Assembly (NCBI RefSeq): GCF_030013595.1
Contig: NZ_CP122768.1
Source of the DNA: Escherichia coli
Lineage (GTDB): Bacteria; Pseudomonadota; Gammaproteobacteria; Enterobacterales; Enterobacteriaceae
DNA: 64,000 bases
Strand: one strand, 5' to 3'
Below, piece after piece: positions 1,152 through 62,722 of the stretch (the stretch's first letter is position 1; every line of letters starts with the position of its first letter). Under the pieces are notes generated by a model. That model was given only the letters and a program-made list of their open reading frames with translations, ran no database searches and was not told where the DNA came from. Made by a program: the position numbers and the translations under genes.

Positions 1152-2192
1152 ATGACTGGTCAGTCTTCATCTCAGGCGGCAACGCCCATTCAGTGGTGGA
1201 AACCCGCGCTTTTCTTTCTCGTTGTCATTGCCGGTCTCTGGTATGTGAAATGGCAACCTTACTACGGCAAAGCGTTTACTGCTGCCGAAACCCACAGTAT
1301 CGGTAAATCTATCCTTGCGCAGGCGGATGCTAATCCGTGGCAGGCGGCGTTGGATTACGCGATGATCTATTTCCTCGCGGTATGGAAAGCGGCGGTGCTG
1401 GGGGTGATCCTCGGTTCGTTGATTCAGGTGCTGATCCCGCGTGACTGGTTGCTGCGTACGCTTGGGCAATCGCGCTTTCGCGGCACGCTGCTGGGAACGC
1501 TGTTTTCGCTGCCGGGCATGATGTGTACCTGCTGTGCGGCTCCGGTCGCGGCGGGAATGCGTCGCCAACAGGTGTCGATGGGCGGTGCGCTGGCATTCTG
1601 GATGGGGAATCCGTTGTTAAACCCGGCGACGCTGGTGTTTATGGGGTTTGTCCTCGGCTGGGGCTTTGCCGCGATTCGTCTGGTGGCGGGGCTGGTGATG
1701 GTGTTGCTGATTGCGACGCTGGTGCAAAAATGGGTGCGTGAAACACCGCAAACGCAGGCACCGGTCGAAATTGACATACCGGAAGCGCAGGGCGGATTTT
1801 TTAGCCGCTGGGGCAGGGCGCTATGGACGCTTTTCTGGAGTACGATCCCGGTTTACATCCTTGCAGTACTGGTGTTGGGTGCCGCTCGCGTCTGGTTATT
1901 CCCGCATGCCGATGGTGCTGTCGATAACAGCCTGATGTGGGTGGTGGCGATGGCGGTAGTAGGATGCTTGTTTGTCATTCCCACGGCAGCAGAAATTCCA
2001 ATTGTGCAAACGATGATGCTGGCAGGCATGGGAACCGCTCCGGCGCTGGCATTGTTGATGACGCTCCCGGCGGTGAGTTTGCCGTCACTGATTATGTTGC
2101 GTAAAGCGTTCCCGGCGAAAGCCTTATGGCTGACAGGGGCGATGGTGGCAGTGTCAGGTGTGATTGTCGGCGGGCTGGCGCTGTTGGCCTAA
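1152..2192 (+). CDS. yraQ: Predicted permease YraQ (346 aa, multi-pass membrane protein)
   Basis: ORF track 1152..2192; hydrophobic multi-helix protein; position between yraR and dolP matches K-12 order. Confidence 0.85.
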   Translation: MTGQSSSQAATPIQWWKPALFFLVVIAGLWYVKWQPYYGKAFTAAETHSIGKSILAQADANPWQAALDYAMIYFLAVWKAAVLGVILGSLIQVLIPRDWLLRTLGQSRFRGTLLGTLFSLPGMMCTCCAAPVAAGMRRQQVSMGGALAFWMGNPLLNPATLVFMGFVLGWGFAAIRLVAGLVMVLLIATLVQKWVRETPQTQAPVEIDIPEAQGGFFSRWGRALWTLFWSTIPVYILAVLVLGAARVWLFPHADGAVDNSLMWVVAMAVVGCLFVIPTAAEIPIVQTMMLAGMGTAPALALLMTLPAVSLPSLIMLRKAFPAKALWLTGAMVAVSGVIVGGLALLA

Positions 2193-2227
2193 GATGTTGG
2201 ATGCTCCTGAATACAGCACTGGACGGT

Positions 2228-2252
2228 CCCCTCTCCCCTTTGGGGAGAGGGT
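2228..2252. repeat. GC-rich palindrome (cctctcccc-tttg-gggagagg) between convergent yraQ and dolP
   Basis: Perfect 9-bp inverted repeat with 4-nt loop seen directly; no flanking T-run so not a classic intrinsic terminator. Confidence 0.4.
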
Positions 2253-2307
2253 GAGGGGAACAGGTCGGCTAAGGTGTGAATATTTACTTCAACGACCGAT
2301 CAATGGC

Positions 2308-2883
2308 TTATTTAATAAACGTAAACGCCGTGGTTACCCGCTTCACGCCGCTTACCCGGCTGGCAATATCTGCCGCCGCTTTCGCTTCACGTTCAGTCAC
2401 TAGTCCCATCAGGAACACTTCACCGTTTTCGGTGGTCACTTTCACGTTGGACGATTTCACCAGGTCGCTGGTTAAGAGCTGCGAACGCACTTTGGTGGTG
2501 ATCCACGTATCGTTAGACGCTTCGCCCAGACCAATCGGCTGGCCCTGACGAATCTCGTTATACACTTCGTTGGCACCGTCTACGCCCATAGCAATCTGTT
2601 TGGCGCGAGCCGAAAGTTCAGCGTTTGGTGACTGCCCAACCAGCAGCACTTTGCCCTGATAGGCCGTTACATTAATGCGCGCTTCTTTCTTAATCTGTTC
2701 GTCTTTCGACAATGCGCTGTTCACGCGCACTTCCAGGGTACCATCGTCCACCTGGGTGCCGACACTGCGTGGGTCAGTTGCGGCTTTGGTACCTACAGCA
2801 GCGGTACCCACTACGGCAGCGGCAACACAACCTTGCAACAGCAGCGCGGAAAGAAGGACTGCGATTGGCGATAATGCCTTCAT
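2308..2883 (-). CDS. dolP: Outer-membrane BON-domain lipoprotein DolP/YraP (191 aa)
   Basis: ORF 2308..2883; N-terminal lipoprotein signal MKALSPIAVLLSALLLQGC; two BON-like repeats. Confidence 0.85.
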   Translation of the reverse strand: MKALSPIAVLLSALLLQGCVAAAVVGTAAVGTKAATDPRSVGTQVDDGTLEVRVNSALSKDEQIKKEARINVTAYQGKVLLVGQSPNAELSARAKQIAMGVDGANEVYNEIRQGQPIGLGEASNDTWITTKVRSQLLTSDLVKSSNVKVTTENGEVFLMGLVTEREAKAAADIASRVSGVKRVTTAFTFIK

Positions 2884-5956: not shown

Positions 5957-6820
5957 ATGAAACAACACCAATCGGCGGATAATTCTCAGGGCCAGCTTTA
6001 CATTGTACCGACGCCAATCGGCAATCTGGCGGATATCACCCAGCGTGCGTTGGAGGTATTACAGGCCGTTGATCTGATTGCCGCCGAGGATACGCGTCAC
6101 ACCGGTTTATTGCTGCAACATTTTGGGATTAATGCTCGGTTGTTTGCGCTGCACGACCATAACGAACAACAAAAAGCCGAAACGCTGCTGGCGAAGCTGC
6201 AAGAGGGGCAAAACATTGCGCTGGTTTCCGATGCCGGAACGCCTCTAATTAACGATCCTGGCTACCATCTGGTGCGTACCTGCCGTGAAGCGGGGATTCG
6301 CGTGGTGCCGCTACCCGGGCCGTGTGCTGCTATCACTGCGTTAAGCGCCGCGGGTTTACCATCCGATCGTTTTTGTTATGAAGGCTTTTTACCTGCCAAA
6401 TCAAAAGGCCGCCGTGATGCGCTAAAAGCCATTGAAGCGGAGCCGCGCACGCTGATTTTTTATGAATCTACCCACCGTCTGTTAGATAGCCTGGAAGATA
6501 TCGTAGCGGTATTAGGCGAATCCCGCTATGTCGTTCTGGCGCGTGAGCTGACCAAAACCTGGGAAACCATTCACGGCGCGCCCGTTGGCGAGCTGCTGGC
6601 GTGGGTCAAAGAAGATGAAAACCGTCGCAAAGGCGAAATGGTACTGATTGTCGAAGGCCATAAAGCACAGGAAGAAGACTTACCCGCTGATGCCCTGCGC
6701 ACGCTGGCGCTGTTGCAGGCAGAACTGCCACTGAAAAAAGCGGCGGCGCTGGCAGCAGAAATTCACGGCGTGAAGAAAAATGCGCTGTATAAGTATGCAC
6801 TGGAGCAGCAGGGAGAGTGA
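5957..6820 (+). CDS. rsmI: 16S rRNA 2'-O-ribose C1402 methyltransferase RsmI
   Basis: ORF 5957..6820 (287 aa); tetrapyrrole-methylase fold sequence; divergent from lpoA as in K-12. Confidence 0.9.
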
Positions 6821-6869
6821 TTACAGGCGTCGCAGCAGGAATAGCGTTGCAACGCCTGTAGCAGGCGAG

Positions 6870-7637
6870 TTAACGACGACACATCTCATCAATCATGCAT
6901 GTGAAATAGTTATGCAGCCATAAAAATGAAGCCGGGATAGCGGTAGAGACTTTAGCCGTGAGAAAACGTTCTGTCGCATCCTGCTTTCCTTCGCCAGTCA
7001 CCAGTAACAAAACTTCGCGGGCATTGAGAATATCCTTCAGGCCTAAGGTGATCCCACGAGTCACGGGACGGCCCGCGGTTTTTAACATCTCATGTTGCTG
7101 TGTTCTGGCATCAAGTTGACTGATATGGCAGGCCGGTTGCAGGTTTTCTCCCGGTTCGTTCAGCCCAAGATGACCGTTTTTCCCCAATCCGAGAACGCAT
7201 AAATCCAGACCGCCTTTGCGCGCAATCAGGTTCGTTACCCGTTCGCACTCTGTCTCATTTATCTCTTCGGAGCGAAAGCTGATGAGCTGGTCTTCACGTA
7301 GCCCCAGCGGCTGCACGATATGCTGTTGCAGGAAAGTTTCGCAGGTACCAGGCATCGTTAATGGCAGATCCACCCATTCGTCGAGCTTCACGAAGGTGAG
7401 CTGGCTGACATCAACCTGCTGCTGGTGGATTTTTTCTACCAGATAATGATACGTCAGTAATGGCGTGGCTCCGGTCGCCAGGCAAATCACGGCATCCGGT
7501 TTGCTACGGATCACGGCCAATAAATATTCGCTGGCACGTTCACTTAACGCCGTATAGTTTTCAACTTGTTGAAGGGTTTGCACAGGATGAAATTCCTTAA
7601 GTAAAGAGGCACCGCCAGACGCAGTGCCTCGTTCCAT
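6870..7637 (-). CDS. agaI: Galactosamine-6-phosphate deaminase/isomerase AgaI
   Basis: ORF 6870..7637; NagB-like glucosamine-6-P deaminase family; last gene of aga cluster. Confidence 0.8.
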   Translation of the reverse strand: MERGTASGGASLLKEFHPVQTLQQVENYTALSERASEYLLAVIRSKPDAVICLATGATPLLTYHYLVEKIHQQQVDVSQLTFVKLDEWVDLPLTMPGTCETFLQQHIVQPLGLREDQLISFRSEEINETECERVTNLIARKGGLDLCVLGLGKNGHLGLNEPGENLQPACHISQLDARTQQHEMLKTAGRPVTRGITLGLKDILNAREVLLLVTGEGKQDATERFLTAKVSTAIPASFLWLHNYFTCMIDEMCRR

Positions 7638-12281: not shown

Positions 12282-13415
12282 TCAAAACGAAGCTAATTGA
12301 CCCTGAATCCAGATTTGTTGCACATGCAGCCCGCTATCCAGCGCAACGACGCTGGCGCGTTTGCCCGGTTTAAGCGATCCCAGAACATCATCAACACCCA
12401 GCATACGCGCCGGATGCAGCGACGCCATATGGATGGCTTCCGCAGGCGTTACGTCCGTCAACTCGACCATATTGCGCACTGCCGCATCAACAGACAGCGT
12501 ACTGCCCGCCAGTCCACCGGACGCGGTACGGACAACGCCACCGTGCATCTGCACTTCTTCGCCACATAACGTATAGCGACCATCCGGCATCCCGGCTGCC
12601 TGCATCGCGTCGGTGATCAGCACGATTCTCTCTTTCGCACAGCAACAACACAGCGACATCGCCGCCGGATGCACATGATGACCATCGGCTATCAGTTCCA
12701 GCCAGGCGCGCTTGTCCGTTAATCCCGCGCCAACCATTCCCGGTTCGCGGTGATGTAAACCTGTCATCCCGTTATAGCAATGCACCAGGCCGTCGGCACC
12801 AGCGTCAAACGCGGCACGGGTTTGTTGCCAGGTCGCCGCGCTATGCCCCAGTATCACCCGTACGTTTTGCTGTTTAAGATGGCGGATGGCCTGCAATGCC
12901 CCTTCTTTTTCCGGTGCCAGCGCTACCACGCGCAAGGTGTGCTGAGAAACGGCAATCAATTGATCCAGCTCGGCAATTTCCAGCTCGCGAAACAGCTCCG
13001 GCGGATGCGCGCCTTTATTCTGCGGCGTGAAGTACGGTCCTTCGAGATAACTCCCCAGCACTTGCGCACCAGGTCCGCCGCGTTGGCAACGTTGAGCAAT
13101 ACGTTTCAGCGCCGCATGAATGGTATTAAGCGGCGCGGTTACGGTGGTCGGTAACCAACTGCCGACACCTTCGCGTGCTTTGTGCATTGCCAGCTTGTCG
13201 AGCACATCCGGCGCGTCATCCATTACATCAACGCCCGCACCACCATGTACATGGGTGTCGATGTAAGCGGGGCAGAGCAGTTCCGCATCGCGTTCAGTCA
13301 CGCCCACTGGAATCGGTTCGATTGCTGAGATTACACCGTCAGCAATACGCAACTGATGGTCATCGAGCCATCCCTCTTCAGTCAGCAGCCTTCTGGCGCG
13401 CAGAACGTGTGTCAT
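12282..13415 (-). CDS. agaA: N-acetylgalactosamine-6-phosphate deacetylase AgaA, full length (377 aa)
   Basis: ORF track 12282..13436; start trimmed to MTHVLRARRLL; NagA-like amidohydrolase with metal-binding His motifs; full length here, unlike the truncated K-12 allele. Confidence 0.85.
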   Translation of the reverse strand: MTHVLRARRLLTEEGWLDDHQLRIADGVISAIEPIPVGVTERDAELLCPAYIDTHVHGGAGVDVMDDAPDVLDKLAMHKAREGVGSWLPTTVTAPLNTIHAALKRIAQRCQRGGPGAQVLGSYLEGPYFTPQNKGAHPPELFRELEIAELDQLIAVSQHTLRVVALAPEKEGALQAIRHLKQQNVRVILGHSAATWQQTRAAFDAGADGLVHCYNGMTGLHHREPGMVGAGLTDKRAWLELIADGHHVHPAAMSLCCCCAKERIVLITDAMQAAGMPDGRYTLCGEEVQMHGGVVRTASGGLAGSTLSVDAAVRNMVELTDVTPAEAIHMASLHPARMLGVDDVLGSLKPGKRASVVALDSGLHVQQIWIQGQLASF

Positions 13416-13846
13416 ATTCCTTCCTCGACCGGACATTCTTCATGGCAGCGGCCTAACTCGTCCACCAAACTGGTCAGCCCACGGTGTCCACACTCCAGCG
13501 CCTGCACACGGAACTCTTCACCGCTTAACCCTTCGCGCTCCAGCACCATCTCCAGTAGCAGTTGCAAATTGGTGCCGGTGATCACTTCACAGCCCGGTTT
13601 TTGCATCGCCAGCGTTGAAGCTACGCGAAACGGCGTGCCGCCCAGCAAATCCGTCAGAAAAACAATGCCGTCTTCACAATCGAGTTGGGCGATGGCCTCT
13701 TCAAGCTGCGATGTAAGCTGCGCGGTGCTTGAGGTTTCGGGAAAATCGATGGCAATAAACTGCGATTGCTCGCCGAGGATTTGCTTCATTGCTTTTTCCA
13801 TGCCACTGGCAAATCCGCCATGCCCTGTCAAAATAATACTTAACAT
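13412..13846 (-). CDS. agaF: PTS EIIA component AgaF (144 aa)
   Basis: ORF 13412..13846; mannose-family IIA sequence MLSIILTGHGGFASG; ATGA overlap with agaA start. Confidence 0.8.
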   Translation of the reverse strand: MLSIILTGHGGFASGMEKAMKQILGEQSQFIAIDFPETSSTAQLTSQLEEAIAQLDCEDGIVFLTDLLGGTPFRVASTLAMQKPGCEVITGTNLQLLLEMVLEREGLSGEEFRVQALECGHRGLTSLVDELGRCHEECPVEEGI

Positions 13847-13863
13847 CTAATACCTCATTGTAT

Positions 13864-14742
13864 TTAAAGGAAATGACAGAATTTACCGACGATGCCGAGT
13901 ACCACGGTAACTGCAATCAGGCGCAGCGGACTCCAGCCGCGGCGTACCAGCCAGAACATGGTCAGGGTGTAGACCAGCGGTAAGAAGGCAGGCATCAGTT
14001 TGTCGATAACATCAGCCTGTAACTTAACCACTGCGTCGCCAGCGGTGATTTCCAGCGTGGTGCTTAAACGAACATAGGTTGCCACCAGCGCGCCGATTAC
14101 CGTCATCCCAACGATTGACGCAGCATGGCCGACTTTTTTGGTATTCGCTTTAATGAGTGGAATCGCCGCCACGCCCATGCGGTAAGCATAATGCGCCAGA
14201 CCAAAACGCAGCCCCAGGTGTACCACGTTGAACAGAACAATAAATACGACTGCGCCAAGAATGGAGCCTTGTAATGCCAGACTGGCACCAATCCCGCCAC
14301 AAATCGGCAGTAGCGTTAGCCAGAACATCGCATCGCCAATCCCGCCAAGCGGCGCACCGACGGCAATTTTGGTGCTCTGAATACTGTTAACGTCCTGCTT
14401 AGAACGCTCCATCGCAAGGATAATGCCGATAACAAACGTCACCAGAAACGGATGGGTATTGAAGAAACCCATATGCCCCTTCATGGCGCGCGCCAGGTCG
14501 CGTTTATTAGTGTGGATCTTTTTCAGAGCAGGCAGCAGACCGTACAACCAGCCGGAAGCCTGCATACGTTCGTAGTTAAAAGACGCTTGTAACAGCATGG
14601 AACGCCAGGCGACGCGGTTGATATCTTTTTTTGTCAGCTCCGCGCCAATACTCTGATCTTCATACACGTTTTCATTGACGCCTGTCAGCAGTGTTTCTTC
14701 GTTTTCACTGACGTTCGGCAGGGTGGTTTGATTAGATGCCAT
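13864..14742 (-). CDS. agaE: PTS N-acetylgalactosamine-specific EIID component AgaE
   Basis: ORF 13864..14748; paralogous to AgaD (shared FNYERMQA motif). Confidence 0.8.
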   Translation of the reverse strand: MASNQTTLPNVSENEETLLTGVNENVYEDQSIGAELTKKDINRVAWRSMLLQASFNYERMQASGWLYGLLPALKKIHTNKRDLARAMKGHMGFFNTHPFLVTFVIGIILAMERSKQDVNSIQSTKIAVGAPLGGIGDAMFWLTLLPICGGIGASLALQGSILGAVVFIVLFNVVHLGLRFGLAHYAYRMGVAAIPLIKANTKKVGHAASIVGMTVIGALVATYVRLSTTLEITAGDAVVKLQADVIDKLMPAFLPLVYTLTMFWLVRRGWSPLRLIAVTVVLGIVGKFCHFL

Positions 14743-15511
14743 CTTCAAATTCCTCTTTCTGTGCCGCAGGTTGAGTCGGTTCAGGAGATTTACGCAGCAG
14801 GTCGATCAGCGCCATCGCCAGCGCGGCGGCAGCAATAGCCAGCACCGGTAACTTGAGCCAGGCTGCGGCAACAAAGCCCAGGATGAAGTAGGGGATGTAG
14901 ACGTTTTTCATCATGATTTTCAGCAGCACGGCAAAACCGATTGCTGGCATGATGCCGCCCGCGACGCCGAGGCCGTCGATTAATCGTTGCGGCAGGACAT
15001 CAATGATGGTTTTGGCATGTTCTGCGCCGAAGTAGATAGGCAGGAAAGCGCAGAGAAAATAGAAAGTGCCGAGTGCCAACAGTGCCAGATAGTTCACGCG
15101 TTCAATGCCGCGTGTATCGGCGTTCTCCGCCATCCGGTCGCAGCGGGACATTACGCCAGACATCACCGAGAACAGGAAGGTAATCCCCATCTGTACTGCG
15201 ACAGCGAAAGGTACGGCGACACCGACCGCGACATCGGGTTTCACGCCAGTAGTAATGGCAAACGCCGTGCCGACGATAGTACCGATAATCACGTTAGGCG
15301 GCTGTGCGCCCGCCAGCGGGGCCAGCCCCATCCACACCAGTTCCAGCGTACCGCCGGTTAAAATACCGGTATGCAGATCGCCAAGTACCAGCCCGACTAA
15401 CGGGCCGAGGACCACCGGGCGGTGCATATGGGTTAAGCCGTTAAACATATCCAGGCCAGCGATAAAGGCGATAATGCCCAACGCGAATGCCTGCAACAGA
15501 CTGATTTCCAT
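14732..15511 (-). CDS. agaW: PTS N-acetylgalactosamine-specific EIIC component AgaW, full length (259 aa)
   Basis: ORF 14732..15511; paralogous to AgaC. Confidence 0.8.
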   Translation of the reverse strand: MEISLLQAFALGIIAFIAGLDMFNGLTHMHRPVVLGPLVGLVLGDLHTGILTGGTLELVWMGLAPLAGAQPPNVIIGTIVGTAFAITTGVKPDVAVGVAVPFAVAVQMGITFLFSVMSGVMSRCDRMAENADTRGIERVNYLALLALGTFYFLCAFLPIYFGAEHAKTIIDVLPQRLIDGLGVAGGIMPAIGFAVLLKIMMKNVYIPYFILGFVAAAWLKLPVLAIAAAALAMALIDLLRKSPEPTQPAAQKEEFEDGI

Positions 15512-17546: not shown

Positions 17547-18356
17547 ATGAGTAATACCGACGCTTCAGGTGAGAAGCGAATGACAGGCACCAGCGAGCGA
17601 CGAGAACAGATCATTCAGCGTCTGCGACAGCAAGGGAGTGTGCAGGTTAACGATCTGTCGGCATTGTATGGCGTATCTACTGTGACGATCCGCAACGATC
17701 TGGCGTTTCTGGAAAAGCAGGGGATCGCTGTGCGTGCCTATGGCGGCGCGTTGATCTGCGATAGCACCACGCCGTCAGTCGAGCCATCAGTGGAAGATAA
17801 AAGCGCGCTGAACACCGCGATGAAACGCAGCGTTGCGAAAGCTGCCGTTGAGTTGATTCAGCCAGGTCATCGGGTGATCCTCGATTCCGGGACCACCACT
17901 TTTGAGATTGCTCGTCTGATGCGCAAGCACACTGACGTAATTGCGATGACCAACGGTATGAACGTGGCTAATGCGTTGCTGGAAGCGGAAGGCGTTGAGC
18001 TGCTGATGACCGGCGGGCATTTGCGCCGTCAGTCGCAATCTTTTTACGGCGATCAAGCTGAACAATCGCTGCAAAATTACCACTTCGATATGCTGTTTCT
18101 TGGTGTAGATGCGATCGATCTGGAGCGCGGCGTCAGCACACATAATGAAGATGAAGCCCGTTTAAACCGCCGGATGTGCGAAGTTGCGGAACGGATCATC
18201 GTGGTCACCGATTCCAGTAAATTCAATCGTTCCAGTTTACATAAGATCATTGATACTCAACGTATCGACATGATCATTGTTGATGAAGGCATTCCTGCGG
18301 ATAGCCTGGAAGGGCTGCGAAAGGCTGGGGTTGAAGTGATTCTGGTCGGGGAGTGA
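17547..18356 (+). CDS. agaR: DeoR-family repressor of the aga regulon AgaR (269 aa)
   Basis: ORF 17547..18356; N-terminal HTH ([19 protein letters not shown]) and DeoR C-terminal sensor domain. Confidence 0.9.
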
Positions 18357-18410
18357 GAAAGGGTGCCCGCTGGTCAACACGAATGCGTTCGGCGGGCATT
18401 GTGAACACCA

Positions 18411-18875
18411 TCAATGGGGTTCTTCTGTCTCTCGGGTGAGGGTTTCCCAGTCGGCAGGAGGATGTCCTCTTTTTAACATTTTGCTGAATACGGTATAGGC
18501 ATCTGTTTTTTTACCGTAGGTGCGCAGAGTGTTTTCATCGTTCATCCATCCCAGAATGATGACTTTCTCTTTTTCACTATAACGAAAGAAGAGACGATAA
18601 CGACCAGCACCAAATTTTACCCGTGACCAGTCTTTATTTTTCCCAGAGCCTAACGACTTGCCATGACGGAATGCCGGTGATGATGGATTGACCGTGATAT
18701 GCTCCTCAATCACTTTATGGACTACCGCCAATAACTTTGTGGCGGCTTTTCTCTGATAATTTTCAGGATCTTTTCCCTTTAATGTCTCGACTTCGGCAAC
18801 TAAAGCGTCGTAGGTTTCCTGAAAACAGGGATGAGCATATAGCGCCCAACCATTAACCCTTTGTGGAAAATCCAT
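18411..18875 (-). CDS. yhaV: Type II toxin YhaV (ribosome-dependent mRNA interferase, 154 aa)
   Basis: ORF 18411..18875; start overlaps prlF stop by 1 nt; recognised YhaV sequence. Confidence 0.9.
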   Translation of the reverse strand: MDFPQRVNGWALYAHPCFQETYDALVAEVETLKGKDPENYQRKAATKLLAVVHKVIEEHITVNPSSPAFRHGKSLGSGKNKDWSRVKFGAGRYRLFFRYSEKEKVIILGWMNDENTLRTYGKKTDAYTVFSKMLKRGHPPADWETLTRETEEPH

Positions 18876-19210
18876 TATTCGTCGTCGCCAATCTCATCAT
18901 CAATGTTGACGTCCATGCCAGCGACAAGTTTCTTTCCTTGTTGAATGTTGAATGGACGAGTTTTTTGCGGGTTGTTCTGGATATCTGCATCCAGAAAACG
19001 CAAAAATGCATTCATAGTATGATCCTCCTGTTCATCTCCCAGTCGGCACATAAATACTTGCCCACCAGGCAGAATTTCGTAATGAATGCTGTCCTGGCCT
19101 GGCTTCAGTTTTAAGGCCTCACGCACTGGCGCGGGGATAGTTGTTTGTCCGCGTATCGTGACCTTTGATTCAGTGGTCAGTACAGCGTGAGAGCGAGCAT
19201 TAGCGGGCAT
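18875..19210 (-). CDS. prlF: Antitoxin PrlF/SohA (AbrB/SpoVT-type DNA-binding, 111 aa)
   Basis: ORF 18875..19210; acidic C-terminal tail (DVNIDDEIGDDE); immediately upstream of yhaV. Confidence 0.9.
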   Translation of the reverse strand: MPANARSHAVLTTESKVTIRGQTTIPAPVREALKLKPGQDSIHYEILPGGQVFMCRLGDEQEDHTMNAFLRFLDADIQNNPQKTRPFNIQQGKKLVAGMDVNIDDEIGDDE

Positions 19211-19304
19211 GATTCACTGTCCTTTTACAGCCTGTTTTCTGCTCAAATTATAAGCTTGAACTAAGGTAATGCAAATGCATTATTAATGGACGTGGGGACT
19301 TTAA

Positions 19305-19336
19305 ACAATAAAAACATGGCACTAAGGCCATGTTTT
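19305..19336 (-). terminator. Putative intrinsic terminator downstream of garD
   Basis: Minus-strand hairpin aaaacatggcc-ttagt-gccatgtttt followed by T-rich tract, just 3' of garD stop. Confidence 0.5.
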
Positions 19337-19358
19337 GCGAGGGACGTTCCAAAAGAAA

Positions 19359-20930
19359 TCAGGTCACCGGTGCCGGGTTAAACACCGCCAGCTGGTTATG
19401 CAGTCCCCATTGATCTGAGAAGGTTTTCTTCTTCCCGCTGGCGACGTCGAGAATAAAGTGGAACAACTTCCAGCCCACCTCTTCAATGCTCTCTTCGCCG
19501 GTAGCGATAGTGCCCGCGTTAATATCCATTAAATCAAACCAGCGGTTCGCCAGCTCGGTGCGGGTCGCCATTTTAATGACGGGTACCGCCATCAGGCCGT
19601 ACGGCGTACCACGGCCGGTCGTAAACACTTGCACGGTAATCCCTGAAGCCACCTGTTGTGTGCCACAGACAAAATCGCTGGCTGGCGTCGCGGCGTAAAT
19701 TAATCCGCGTTTAGTCGGGCGTTGACCGGGCGACAGCACTTCAACAATTGCGCTTTTACCCGATTTAGCAATGGAGCCGAGCGCTTTCTCCACCACATTT
19801 GCCAGACCGCCTTTCTTGTTGCCCGGCGAAGGGTTGGCGCTGCGGTCGGTTTTTCCCATATTGAGATAGTTATCGTACCACTCCATCTCCTCCAGCAGCC
19901 GTTTGCCGACCTCTTCGTTCACTGCGCGTGGTGTCAGCAGATGGATCGCGTCACGCACTTCCGTGACTTCTGAAAACATCACCGTTGCGCCGCAGCGCAC
20001 CAGTAGATCAGACGCATACCCAACCGCCGGGTTTGCCGTTACGCCAGAAAACGCATCGCTGCCGCCGCACTGCATGCCGACAACCAGTTCTGAAGCCGGA
20101 CAGGTTTCTCGCTGCCGTTGATTCAGTTTGTGCAAATGGCGTTCGGCGACCTGCAAAATATCCTCGACCATGGACTGAAAGCCGACATGCTTTTCATCCT
20201 GCAAACTGACAATGCTGGCGCTTTCTACTGGAATAGCTTGCACATCATCCGTTCCAGTCAGCAGGCGCTCAGGCTGCAACTTTTCACAACCCAGACCAAT
20301 CACCATTACTTCGCCGCCAAAGTTAGGGTTCAGCGAAATATTGTGGATGGTACGAATAGGCACAACTGCCGCCGGTGCATTAATCGCCACGCCACAACCG
20401 TACAAATGATTCAGCCCCACCACGCCATCGACGTTCGGGTATTTCGGTAGCAGATCGCGTTCAATGATTTTTACTACATAGTCCACCACGCCTGCTACAC
20501 AGTGGACGCTGGTGGTGATGCCGAGCAGGTTTTTAGTGCCCACGCTGCCATCGGCATTGCGATAGCCCTCAAAGGTGTATCCTTCCAGCGGCGGTAAGGG
20601 GTCCGGGACTTTGGTTGCCAGTGGCAGCGTGTGTAACGGCGGCGCTTCCGGTAGTACAACCATTGATTCGTCGATCCAGCTTCCGCGTGGGATTGCGCGC
20701 ACGGCGTAACCAATCACTTCGCCATAACGAATAATTTCACCATTAGCCGGAATGTCCAGCAATGCGACTTTATGCCCCTGGGGAATATGTTCAATTAATT
20801 CCAGCCCATCCGGAAAACGCGTTCCTGCTTTCAGGCCATTATCATTAACAATAATTGCCACATTATCTGTGTCGTGAACTTTTATATAAAACGCAGTTGG
20901 CGTTTCTTGTCTGATTTCGATGTTGGCCAT
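19359..20930 (-). CDS. garD: Galactarate dehydratase GarD (523 aa)
   Basis: ORF 19359..20930; UxaA-family (SAF + dehydratase) sequence paralogous to UxaA at 53823. Confidence 0.9.
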
Positions 20931-25619: not shown

Positions 25620-25996
<377 letters not shown>

Positions 25997-40363: not shown

Positions 40364-40444
40364 ACGCCAGGTTTTGGGTAACGTGCCGGATGCGATGCTG
40401 GCTGAACTGCACCCCAAATGTTGGACATAATCTGACATCTGAAG

Positions 40445-40975
40445 GTGCAGTTTATGAAACATTCATTTGAAGTAAAACTTGCCGCTGTAAATCATTACCT
40501 GGCTGGTCATGCAGGCATCATTTCTACGGCAAAACTCTTTCAACTTTCTCACACCAGCCTCTCACACTGGATTAATCTTTTTCTTCTTCACGGTCCTCGT
40601 GCACTGGATTGCAGACACAAGCGTAGCTATTCTCCTGAAGATAAACTTTGCGTGGTTCTTTATGCTCTCGGGCATTCTGAGTCTCTACCCCGGGTAGCTG
40701 CCCGGTTTAACATTCCCAGCCACAACACGGTTAAAAACTGGATAAAAGGCTACCGCAAATCTGGTAATGAGGCCTTTATCAGGCGCAGGAAGGAGAAAAG
40801 CATGACCCGTTCTGATGATACCCATGAAAACGAGGCAAACATGACGCCGGAAGAGATGAAGAATGAGCTGCGTTATCTTCGCGCAGAAAATGCATATCTG
40901 AAAGCCATGCAGGAGCATCTCCTGGAAAAAAAGCGCCAGGAGCTGGAGAAAAAACGAAAGTCATCCGGAGCCTGA
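40445..40975 (+). CDS. IS3-family transposase OrfA (HTH, leucine-zipper region; 176 aa)
   Basis: ORF 40445..40975; in-frame A_AAA_AAG slippery heptamer at 40927-40933 near the 3' end. Confidence 0.85.
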   Translation: MQFMKHSFEVKLAAVNHYLAGHAGIISTAKLFQLSHTSLSHWINLFLLHGPRALDCRHKRSYSPEDKLCVVLYALGHSESLPRVAARFNIPSHNTVKNWIKGYRKSGNEAFIRRRKEKSMTRSDDTHENEANMTPEEMKNELRYLRAENAYLKAMQEHLLEKKRQELEKKRKSSGA

Positions 40976-41079
40976 GGTGCGGACACTGCCAGTCTGACCT
41001 GTTAAAGGCTGCAGGGCTGGCCAGAAGCACGCTGTACTACCAGCTGTCACTGCAGAAGGCTAAGGACAAGTATGCTGAT

Positions 41080-41928
<849 letters not shown>

Positions 41929-57193: not shown

Positions 57194-57479
57194 TTTTCGA
57201 TCCTTTCATTGTGTTGTCGCACATCCCTGGTGCGTTCTGTCGACGCATCTTTCAGGATGTAACAAAGTGTTTGCAAGGTCGAGTATAAGGAAAGTTACAG
57301 CTTCGGGAAGCGAAAAATGCTGGATTTTAAAGAGAGGTCATATTTTGCAACTTAATGGTTACATTTATTTGACATAAACAGAGGGAAGGACTGGCTACTA
57401 AGGCTGATTAGATAACATATGGGCAAAACTATTTGGAATATGAGAACGGTTGCGCTCTTTTAATGTGCTATGCCATATA

Positions 57480-57715
57480 AAGTCACTGGCGCAGGGAGCG
57501 CGCAGGGGGCGGCCAATCGCCGCCGCCCCCTGCACCCCCAGGCTCTGGCGAACAAAATCGCCGCTGCGCGGTTCCCTCAGCTTATCCCTTGCGGCTACCG
57601 GGTCGGGCGCAAGGGAACGTCCCTGTAAGATGCCCCCTCGCCGCGCATCCATGCGCGTCGCCCCGGCCTCCAGGGAACGCTTCGGCGATTTTGACGCCAC
57701 CAACACCCGTGCGGT
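57480..57715. repeat. GC-rich multi-hairpin intergenic element of unknown identity (between alx 3' end and sstT upstream region)
   Basis: Perfect 12-bp stem gcagggggcggc / gccgccccctgc (57502-57533), palindrome cgcgcatccatgcgcg, nested ccttgcg/cgcaagg pairings, and flanking ctggcg direct repeats; much more GC-rich than the AT-rich flanks. Confidence 0.4.
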
Positions 57716-57808
57716 CTTTTTGTAAAGAGCTATAAGCCGATTACATAATTAATAGCTCACCTTTGTCTGGAATGAGTTATCTCTAGTAATGGCTTAATAT
57801 ACAGCGAA

Positions 57809-58774
57809 TCATTCTCCCCGCTGCTTATCATGCCGATAATTCACCCAAGCGTTGATAATAAACGTCATCACCAGAATGCCAAACACCACGCCCAGCGAAA
57901 CGGCGATCGGAATATGGTAGAAGTCAACAATCAGCATCTTGATACCGATAAACACCAGAATCACCGCCAGACCATATTTGAGCATCGAGAAACGTTCTGC
58001 TACGCCCGCCAGCAGGAAATACATCGCACGCAGGCCGAGGATCGCAAACAGGTTTGAGGTCAGCACAATGAACGGGTCAGTGGTAACAGCGAAGATAGCT
58101 GGAATGCTATCCACGGCGAAAATCACGTCGCTCAATTCCACCAGAATCAGCACCAGCATCAGCGGTGTGGCATACAGCAAGCCATTCTTGCGCACAAAGA
58201 AATGCTCGTTGTCGATGGTGTCGGTCATACGCAAATGACCGCGCAACCAGCGCACCAGCGGCTTGTCGCCAATGCCTGATTCATCTTCATGGGCCAGCGC
58301 CATCTTCACGCCGGTAAACAGCAGGAAGGCACCGAAGATATACAGGATCCAGTCGAACTGCGAAATCAGCCAGCTGCCAGTGAAGATCATGATGGTACGC
58401 AGAACAATCGCCCCGAGCACGCCATACACCAGCACGCGGCGTTGTAATGCCGCCGGAACAGAGAAATAGCTGAACAACATCAGCCAGACAAAGACGTTAT
58501 CGACCGCCAGCGATTTCTCAATCAGATAACCCGTGAGAAAGGCCAGTGCCTGTGGATCGGCAACGGCGCGACCTTCGGTTTGCACCAGATACCACCAGAA
58601 AGCGGCGTTAAACAGTAACGACAGCGTCACCCAGACCAGCGACCAGGCCGCAGCCTGTTTCATGGTCATGGCATGTGCCCCACGACGCCCCTGCAACAAC
58701 AGGTCGATAGCCAGCATAATGGCGACAACAACAGCGAATCCGCCCCATAGCAACGGCGTGCCGACAGTATTCAT
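57809..58774 (-). CDS. alx: TerC-family membrane protein Alx (321 aa), putative Mn2+ exporter
   Basis: ORF 57809..58774; TerC family. Confidence 0.9.
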
Positions 58775-58990
58775 AGAAGTTCCTTACACATAAAAAAAAC
58801 GGCCAACGTCGGAAGACGTCAGCCGCTGCTTTTTATGCATAGACCTCGCCTTCCGGCAAGGTCTCACTTACAACAAAAAAGGAATACGTCTGCGTATTCC
58901 TTTCGGGTTGCCCGGTGACCGGATGTGGTTTTGCACACATCGTAATGACGATCGACCGGCAATGAAGTTACTCCCCTTTGCAGGTAACAA
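58775..58990 (-). promoter_or_regulatory. sraF: alx 5' leader: pH-responsive element / yybP-ykoY-family Mn2+ riboswitch (SraF region)
   Basis: About 215-nt structured leader immediately upstream of alx; assignment by position and established knowledge; motif not verified by covariance model. Confidence 0.55.
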
Positions 58991-59057
58991 AGTATGACAG
59001 ACCATTCAGTCAGTCAATGGTCTGTTACATGCCTTTTACACTGTTTTACTTTGGCAA

Positions 59058-60044
59058 TTATAGTTTTACTCTATCTGCCGGAAAAATCACCCCAGTCTGG
59101 CGGCGGATCTCGGTCAGCAGTTTGGCGGTGATGCGACTGACCGTCAGCCATGGATGATCCACCAGATGCTCATCCACCAGTTCAGCAAACAGCTCTGCTT
59201 CGTAGAGCATGGTATTAATATGCTGCGGTTGGGTGAGATCCTGCATCTGGCTGCCACGCGGAACAAAGCAAACTTTCTGGCATTCAGACAGTTTTTCAAT
59301 CACCAGCGATCCCGCTTCGCCCTGAATCTCGCTTGCCAGGACAGAATCGCTCACTTTTGAGTGCTGCAACGTAACGCTGAAATCACCGTAATCCATCACC
59401 ACCACGCCGTGGGCATCCACACCGCTTGCCAGCAAACTGGCGGTTGCCTGCACGCTTTTCGGTTCACCGAATAATGCCACCGCCGACGCCAGGCAGTAAA
59501 AGCCGATATCCATAATTGAACCGTTAGAGAATGCCGGATTAAAGGTGTTGGGATTCTCACCATCCAGGTAACGTTGATACCGCGAGGAATACTGGCAATA
59601 GTTGAAAAAGACTTTACGCAGTTTGCCGACTTTCGGCAGCGCCTGGCGTAACAGATGAAAGTTCGGCAGGCTGGCGGTTTTAAATGCCTCAAACAGCACC
59701 ACCTGATTTTCCCGCGCACAGGCAATGGCGGCATCCACTTCCGCCAGATTCGATGCCAGCGGCTTCTCGCAAATCACATGAATTTTGTGGCTAAGGAAAA
59801 GTTGTGTCTGGGAAAAGTGCAGGGCATTCGGGCTGGCAATATACACCGCGTCAATGGCATCGCTTTCTGCCATCGCTTCCAGCGACGTAAACAGATGCTC
59901 GACAGAAAAATCATTGGCAAAGTGCTGGGCCTGTTCAAGGCTGCGGGAATATACGGCGGTTAACTTGTATTTACCGCTCTCATGGGCGGCCTCGACGAAC
60001 TGGCGAGTGATCCAGTTCGTACCAATCACAGCGAAACGTATCAT
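59058..60044 (-). CDS. ygjR: Gfo/Idh/MocA-family NAD(P)-dependent oxidoreductase YgjR (328 aa)
   Basis: ORF track 59058..60062; start trimmed to MIRFAVIGTNWITRQFVEAA (Rossmann N-terminus). Confidence 0.8.
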   Translation of the reverse strand: MIRFAVIGTNWITRQFVEAAHESGKYKLTAVYSRSLEQAQHFANDFSVEHLFTSLEAMAESDAIDAVYIASPNALHFSQTQLFLSHKIHVICEKPLASNLAEVDAAIACARENQVVLFEAFKTASLPNFHLLRQALPKVGKLRKVFFNYCQYSSRYQRYLDGENPNTFNPAFSNGSIMDIGFYCLASAVALFGEPKSVQATASLLASGVDAHGVVVMDYGDFSVTLQHSKVSDSVLASEIQGEAGSLVIEKLSECQKVCFVPRGSQMQDLTQPQHINTMLYEAELFAELVDEHLVDHPWLTVSRITAKLLTEIRRQTGVIFPADRVKL

Positions 60045-62624: not shown

Positions 62625-62722
62625 GCTACCTGCCAGATAAGGCGTAAACGCCTTATCTGGCATACGTTCAGCACATTACCCCCAGGTCGGATAAGACGCG
62701 GCAAGCGTCGCATCCGGCACTT
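62625..62722. repeat. REP/BIME cluster between rlmG and fadH
   Basis: tgccagataaggcgtaaacgccttatctggcat and ggtcggataagacgcggcaagcgtcgcatccggcac match the PU consensus pattern. Confidence 0.55.

Follow-up and report, generated by a model that had tools for sequence, protein, structure and literature searches.

The window, by which we mean the whole 64-kb stretch of DNA that was analyzed, holds at positions 18411-19210 what is very probably the chromosomal prlF-yhaV type II toxin-antitoxin (TA) operon of Escherichia coli in working order, the mechanism that we propose below included, as judged from its sequence. Two ORFs occupy this segment on the minus strand, one of 111 aa (19210..18875) and one of 154 aa (18875..18411), and each begins at the first ATG past an in-frame upstream stop.

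18875..19210, minus strand: prlF (sohA) antitoxin gene; ORF, 111/111 residues as in K-12 NP_417598.1, matching PF15937 and NF007429
18411..18875, minus strand: yhaV toxin gene, RelE/ParE-superfamily ribonuclease; ORF, 153/154 residues as in K-12 NP_417599.1, matching PF11663

The pair has the layout of a type II TA operon, as the genes are small, adjacent, co-oriented, and overlapping, with the antitoxin first and one predicted promoter in front. Its neighbors are garD (19359..20930, minus strand) and agaR (17547..18356, plus strand), the latter convergent with yhaV across a 54-nt spacer. Within that spacer lies a G+C-rich hairpin that we considered as a possible end for a transcript.

18364..18398, minus strand: G+C-rich hairpin of the yhaV-agaR spacer (-20 kcal/mol; z-score, -1.88; without a T-run), weak terminator candidate

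We rejected this hairpin as a terminator, given its z-score against shuffled sequences, the missing T-run, and a negative terminator scan. A search of positions 18200-19500 against Rfam at an E value of ≤1 found no RNA family.

A previous sequence-only reading of this DNA had described both genes as full length and the pair as the known PrlF-YhaV type II system, and had suggested an alignment to K-12 prlF-yhaV. In that alignment both genes are intact and nearly identical to those of K-12, and the descriptions agree with the ORFs, the Pfam and NCBIfam scores, and the conserved residues given below. Over 1,101 nt (18300-19400) we found five single-base differences from K-12 MG1655: the one behind T153P, which is the only amino acid change in YhaV (99.4% identity), a synonymous one in yhaV, one at 19298, one in the yhaV-agaR spacer, and one in agaR, while PrlF is 100% identical. 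The K-12 PrlF-YhaV system (b3129-b3130; Schmidt et al. 2007, J Mol Biol 372:894) is alike in its position between garD and agaR, gene lengths, TAATG junction, promoter, and repeat, and differs from the window by those five bases. The prlF gene of the window is, by the same alignment, the wild type and not prlF1, an allele in which 7 bp are duplicated and which has been linked to increased activity of Lon (PMC12107188). Compared with E. coli strain 7/2, the 1,101-nt stretch has one difference, which is synonymous and located in garD, and the other 24 genomes among the matches listed are 99.9% identical over this length. As the locus is covered over at least 80% in at least 5,123 of 5,426 complete E. 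coli genomes (~94%), an intact prlF-yhaV is the normal state in this species.

PrlF appears to consist of an AbrB/MazE-type N-terminal DNA-binding region, which is predicted, followed by an acidic C-terminal tail. It matches PF15937 (PrlF_antitoxin) over residues 14-110 with 142.2 bits (cut-off, 32) and the NCBIfam equivalog NF007429 over residues 1-111 with 170 bits (cut-off, 125). The stand-alone AbrB/MazE models remain just under their cut-offs on the N terminus (19.5 versus 24.7 bits for PF04014 and 27.1 versus 28.3 bits for TIGR01439), and a PDB sequence search with PrlF retrieved no true homolog. An R-x-QTT(I/V)P-x-x-(I/V)R segment in this N-terminal part is kept across the plasmid PrlF homologs that were compared, and its conservation in those homologs that also bear the operator motif described below fits a shared DNA specificity.

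The toxin, too, appears intact. YhaV reaches 181.9 bits against PF11663 (Toxin_YhaV; cut-off, 35), with residues 12-150 corresponding to model positions 1-137 of 138. In an alignment of seven YhaV sequences (those of the window and K-12 plus five plasmid homologs that are 44-53% identical), all 41 of the 41 invariant columns are retained in the window protein, R94, R98, R118, Y120, and Y127 among them. The last conserved column is L146, and the tail past this residue varies in both length and sequence. YhaV contains highly conserved arginines, two of which abolish activity when replaced, with the pair left unnamed in the review that reports this (PMC5408214). No arginine is altered in the window, and the alignment holds no inactivating change in the catalytic residues, which the sequence-only reading had named as the evidence that would tell against it.

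An AlphaFold2 model of YhaV, built on a small alignment, has a mean pLDDT of 86.8 and a pTM of 0.82, with a less confident C-terminal end (pLDDT of 59 in the last block). When this model was compared with the PDB by Foldseek, ranks 1-46 were all taken by RelE/HigB/ParE/YoeB/PfiT-type toxins (best E value, 1.2e-4), to which YhaV is 8-17% identical among the matches with solved toxins, and the protein is predicted to have a RelE/ParE-type fold. A PDB sequence search with YhaV gave no true homolog. We also discarded PDB entry 2KHE as a YhaV structure, as it is labeled in a review (PMC7781912), since the Foldseek listing gives it as RelE of Thermus thermophilus. In K-12, YhaV is an mRNA endonuclease that produces growth arrest (PMC7781912; PMC8546651), and its mRNA cleavage shows the bias in codon position and toward the 5' end that marks ribosome-dependent toxins of the RelE family, grouping it with RelE and HigB (PMC8546651). 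The need for the ribosome is disputed, with dependence on one side (PMC7781912) and earlier in vitro cleavage that was independent of ribosomes on the other (PMC5408214). PrlF neutralizes YhaV in K-12 within a PrlF2-YhaV4 complex (PMC7781912).

The garD-prlF spacer (19211-19358) has 148 nt with 37.8% G+C, against 50.8% for the window, in agreement with the AT-rich region that had been noted 5' of prlF. It contains the elements through which the operon would be expressed and regulated.

19301..19336, minus strand: garD intrinsic terminator with a 10-bp stem (AAAACATGGC/GCCATGTTTT), a 6-nt loop, and a T-rich tail (hairpin, 19336-19311)
19247..19275, minus strand: predicted sigma-70-type prlF-yhaV promoter, with -35 box TTTGCA (19275-19270), 17-nt spacer, and -10 box TATAAT (19252-19247)
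19267..19282, no strand assigned: putative PrlF or PrlF-YhaV operator TAATGCA-tt-TGCATTA, an inverted repeat with its promoter-proximal arm overlapping the -35 hexamer
19285..19298, minus strand: possible degenerate second operator TCCCCAcgTCCATT, with TCCATT as its right half (5/6) and a left half of 2/6, starting 17 nt ahead of the main operator

The promoter agrees with the consensus at 10 of 12 positions, which is a consensus match only, and the garD terminator is predicted to insulate it from transcription of garD. The 50-mer that runs from the -10 box through the repeat (19243-19292) is found exactly in 4,798 of 5,426 complete E. coli genomes. A promoter-like site on the plus strand (19224-19251) was rejected as a 9/12 match in AT-rich DNA.

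The core of the inverted repeat is atgcaaatgcat at 19269-19280 of the plus strand. The sequence-only reading had reported a palindromic segment in this place; the repeat is indeed there, but it is an interrupted inverted repeat and not a strict palindrome, and at 7+2+7 nt it is longer than had been stated, with 7-nt arms (TAATGCA at 19267-19273 and TGCATTA at 19276-19282) around a 2-nt spacer. Arms of at least 7 nt occurred in 191 of 5,000 shuffles (3.8%) of the 100-nt region, so the repeat alone is modestly unlikely, and its significance comes from conservation in distant homologs and not from arm length alone. Within the 64-kb window, AATGCANNTGCATT has a single exact match, the site at 19267..19282.

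For the comparison of motifs, plasmids were searched by tblastn, which gave PrlF homologs that are 33-48% identical, and seven loci were examined. We found AATGCANNTGCATT in exact form 5' of the prlF homologs of Pantoea ananatis, an E. coli IncF plasmid, Pantoea agglomerans, Pseudosulfitobacter, and Bradyrhizobium, the loci with exact AATGCA-NN-TGCATT being L005, L006, L007, L010, and L011; the Synechocystis locus (L009) departs from it at one base. The motif thereby spans alpha- and gammaproteobacteria and a cyanobacterium. Altogether the 11,847 nt of homolog loci contain eight exact matches versus 0.0007 expected, and this recurrence 5' of distant homologs makes the operator assignment well supported. 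Three plasmid loci have two tandem copies of the motif, 17-18 nt apart from start to start, and wherever a TTGACA/TTGACT box can be seen (L009, L010, and L011) the motif lies directly 3' of the box, inside the promoter spacer. The locus from a Klebsiella plasmid (L008), where a prlF-like gene stands as an orphan with no yhaV beside it, lacks the motif.

According to a review, the PrlF2-YhaV4 complex recognizes a palindrome in the promoter 5' of prlF and can dimerize cooperatively on this sequence (PMC7781912, citing Schmidt et al. 2007). The autoregulatory operator that had been put forward as a candidate now appears to be more than that, given the overlap with the -35 box, the conservation in homologs, and this statement of the review, and positions 19267-19282 probably coincide, base by base, with the published PrlF-YhaV binding site as the review outlines it. 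The degenerate site at 19285-19298 has 5 mismatches in 12 positions and the same start-to-start spacing as the tandem sites of the Pantoea and IncF plasmid homologs (17-18 nt); as a speculation, it may be a second binding position for PrlF.

The two genes meet at a stop/start junction, and prlF begins behind a Shine-Dalgarno sequence.

19220..19224, minus strand: prlF Shine-Dalgarno sequence AAGGA, ending 9 nt ahead of the ATG (-5.3 kcal/mol with the anti-Shine-Dalgarno sequence)
18873..18877, minus strand: TAATG stop/start junction, with the A at 18875 shared by the prlF TAA, which it closes, and the yhaV ATG, which it opens

On the minus strand the junction is GACGACGAATAATGGATTTT, which reads ...GAC GAC GAA TAA TGG ATT..., and the K-12 annotation has the identical one-base overlap (prlF, 3277002..3277337; yhaV, 3277337..3277801), so the 1-nt overlap at 18875 had been read correctly from the letters. 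For yhaV, the duplex between the 25 nt ahead of its ATG and the 16S anti-Shine-Dalgarno sequence reaches only -2.8 kcal/mol, a value equaled or surpassed by 54% of 25-mers drawn at random from the window. With a yhaV Shine-Dalgarno sequence no better than random, the proposal that this is the arrangement expected for translational coupling is plausible: the combination of UAAUG and a weak Shine-Dalgarno sequence supports coupling of the reinitiation type, with less toxin made than antitoxin, and yhaV would be translationally coupled to prlF. For K-12 prlF-yhaV, too, RBS-calculator analysis predicts that the antitoxin is translated at a higher level than the toxin (PMC5535158). The antitoxin-toxin spacing in the homologs is +23, +22, +6, +2, and -4 nt; the one-base overlap is thus not a family trait, and coupling is not required family-wide.

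Several other readings of these data can be considered. That yhaV is translated on its own, from a weak RBS or from a promoter inside prlF, instead of by termination and reinitiation at UAAUG, seems unlikely to us. Homologs with gaps of 6-23 nt must initiate without an overlapping stop, and there is a promoter-like TTGATG-18-AATAAT inside prlF (18903-18874); the -10 hexamer of the latter, however, ends at 18874 and so extends past the A of the yhaV start codon, and a transcript from it would be unable to encode YhaV. We rejected this site as a yhaV promoter, as its -10 hexamer covers the start codon. The poor Shine-Dalgarno sequence of yhaV also argues against this reading, and so does RNA-seq of K-12, in which antitoxin and toxin mRNA stand at a ratio of 1.11, as would fit one transcript for both genes (PMC5535158).

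Doubts about the operator and about the allele are far less probable still. The inverted repeat could be plain AT-rich promoter sequence or the site of another regulator, with PrlF bound elsewhere; 7-nt arms do arise in a few percent of the shuffles, and prlF has been reported as regulated by CpxR (PMC9600279), which would be an example of such a regulator. We regard this as extremely improbable, because the same 12 specified bases stand 5' of PrlF homologs in unrelated hosts and promoters at the counts given above, because the conservation of the motif tracks the PrlF gene and not the host, and because the review has the complex binding a palindrome in the prlF promoter (PMC7781912). There is scarcely more to be said for a locus in which the genes are intact and the allele is nevertheless weakened, toxicity being lowered or regulation altered by T153P or by the T that replaces C at 19298, so that a silent remnant is left. 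The window does differ from K-12 at both positions, and its exact 91-nt 3'-end haplotype belongs to a minority (244 of 5,426 genomes). Against this, residue 153 is the penultimate one, outside the PF11663 match at 12-150, within the variable tail and in the low-confidence end of the model, and the same YhaV protein (WP_000347272.1) is found in strain 7/2, with the 24 other listed genomes being nearly identical over the whole stretch. T153P was rejected as an inactivating change on account of the unconserved C-terminal tail, and it appears to be neutral for YhaV function. Position 19298, a T in the window and a C in K-12, is the sole difference in the promoter region and the first base of the degenerate second site, and it falls in neither of the promoter hexamers nor in the perfect repeat.

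For a prlF-yhaV operon in working order we propose the following mechanism. A single sigma-70 promoter (TTTGCA-17-TATAAT) would transcribe both prlF and yhaV. PrlF would be an AbrB/MazE-like antitoxin that binds DNA through a swapped hairpin and neutralizes YhaV, and the PrlF-YhaV complex would bind TAATGCA-tt-TGCATTA, so that, as the repeat overlaps the -35 box, its binding is expected to repress the operon by promoter occlusion. As yhaV would be without an RBS of its own, ribosomes that end at the prlF UAA most likely restart at the overlapping AUG (UAAUG), and this reinitiation would tie toxin synthesis to antitoxin synthesis and hold the toxin at the lower level. Degradation of PrlF would leave YhaV, a ribonuclease of predicted RelE fold, free to cleave mRNA on translating ribosomes and so to cause a reversible growth stop. 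What is said here of toxicity and its neutralization, of the PrlF2-YhaV4 complex and its binding to the promoter, and of cleavage that depends on ribosomes is carried over to this locus, by analogy, from the literature on K-12.

The other TA locus of this region, higBA, had been described as missing and for that reason as giving relevance to prlF-yhaV. The absence is confirmed by the K-12 alignment and by tblastn.

62705..62719, no strand assigned: empty higBA site between rlmG and fadH, where 925 bp of K-12 (3233712-3234637) are missing

The window is collinear with K-12 in inverted orientation and jumps from K-12 position 3234637 (window 62719) to 3233712 (window 62705). The missing stretch, which is cleanly absent, holds the whole of higA (3233728-3234144) and higB (3234141-3234455), and a REP-type palindromic unit is located at the empty junction, K-12 having such units on either side of higBA. 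A tblastn search of the whole 64-kb window with K-12 HigA and HigB returned nothing significant. As to relevance, full-length higBA occurs in 2,825 of 5,426 complete E. coli genomes (52%), with no match at all in 1,049. The absence is a frequent strain polymorphism without evident bearing on prlF-yhaV, and we saw no functional link between the two.

Compared with mazEF, relBE, and higBA, prlF-yhaV is a hybrid, its antitoxin being predicted to be of the MazE type and its toxin of the RelE type. MazE/AbrB antitoxins such as that of mazEF are weakly matched by the PrlF N terminus, and the YhaV model superposes on the structures of RelE, HigB, ParE, and YoeB, although at 154 aa YhaV is longer than RelE and HigB (~95-105 aa), with extra N-terminal helices in the model. 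The plasmid PrlF/YhaV modules of Pantoea, E. coli IncF, Bradyrhizobium, Synechocystis, and Roseobacteraceae share with the locus the antitoxin-toxin order, the conserved YhaV residues, and AATGCA-NN-TGCATT in or beside the promoter; they differ in that their proteins are 33-53% identical and their gene spacing ranges from -4 to +23 nt, versus -1 nt here. Several of them carry two tandem operators, in two cases ~200-330 nt 5' of the annotated start, whereas the chromosomal locus of E. coli has one perfect operator.

The PrlF homolog of the E. coli IncF plasmid is 44% (MAFFT) or 45.6% (tblastn) identical and has the tandem operator motif. As the operator core is near-invariant between plasmids of cyanobacteria and alphaproteobacteria and the E. 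coli chromosome and occurs in tandem on IncF plasmids, plasmid PrlF could act at the chromosomal promoter, repressing or competing at prlF-yhaV, and vice versa. We consider such cross-talk between noncognate TA systems improbable; if it were true, the single-site chromosomal and tandem-site plasmid layouts would set different repression thresholds.

The prlF-yhaV locus of the window is already known in every respect and nothing about it is unusual. Shared by about 94% of complete E. coli genomes and found here in its standard state, it has little importance beyond correct annotation. A by-product is the definition, from distant homologs, of a PrlF-family operator, AATGCA-NN-TGCATT, which is single or in tandem 17-18 nt apart. 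This comparative definition is probably not new either; Schmidt et al. 2007 reportedly mention a conserved promoter sequence in their abstract already. For the PrlF/YhaV family as a whole, it could help in annotating promoters and in designing binding experiments.

Relative to K-12, to which the window aligns in collinear, inverted order, several segments differ. The yraHIJK fimbrial operon of K-12 (~3286994-3292479, 5.5 kb) has no counterpart in the window, and its place between agaI and rsmI is taken by ~100 nt at window 6813-6913. A stretch of ~2.3 kb at window 12840-15136 is without K-12 equivalent; in K-12, agaW and agaA are annotated as pseudogenes at this position, and the aga cluster of the window seems to be the undeleted form. 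Megablast against the K-12 region also left ~120 nt unmatched (window 2186-2309), flanked by the homology blocks of yraQ and dolP. Two further differences lie beside cyuA and between alx and sstT:

Window 40403-41835: 1.43-kb insertion relative to K-12, adjoining the cyuA end; K-12 site ~3255302-3255305.
Window 57378-57816 (core ~57480-57720): alx-sstT spacer, 438 nt vs. ~220 nt in K-12.

The insertion contains two ORFs, one with helix-turn-helix (HTH) transposase domains and the other with rve integrase domains, and its top matches among E. coli genomes are annotated as the IS3-like element IS1397 (99.9% identity). The insertion was searched for terminal inverted repeats with a length of 14 nt or more, and none turned up.

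The extra stretch of the alx-sstT spacer is G+C rich, is predicted to adopt a very stable fold (-135 kcal/mol, z-score of -3.9), and belongs to a family of repeats of which E. coli genomes have a median of 3 copies. Rfam gave a hit below threshold to the TwoAYGGAY RNA (RF01731) at 57540-57705 (-), with E = 0.043 and 29.9 bits, the gathering score being 43. In K-12, a regulatory RNA element has been described upstream of alx. For the leader region of this gene, no Rfam family was recovered, either in the gathering-score scan of the whole window, of which rnpB (25620-25995) was the sole find, or in window 57300-59400 at E <= 1.

As for the main locus, prlF-yhaV, the core of the PrlF operator repeat, AATGCA-NN-TGCATT, is found in two tandem copies, 17 to 18 nt apart, at the plasmid loci of three PrlF/YhaV homologues, and a further plasmid carries a PrlF-family gene:

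L005 338-369: tandem motifs, Pantoea ananatis plasmid.
L006 452-483: tandem motifs, E. coli IncF plasmid.
L007 601-631: tandem motifs, Pantoea agglomerans plasmid.
L008 602-973: PrlF-family gene, Klebsiella pneumoniae plasmid.

On the P. ananatis and E. coli IncF plasmids, the tandem motifs precede the prlF start, as annotated, by ~200 to 330 nt, with TATACT directly after them, which implies that prlF has either a long leader or a misannotated start in both. The K. pneumoniae gene has an N terminus unlike that of the other homologues, with no adjoining yhaV and no operator motif at the locus. Its neighbours are HicA and RelE/ParE-Phd modules, and the gene thus appears to encode either an orphan antitoxin or one that has been re-paired.
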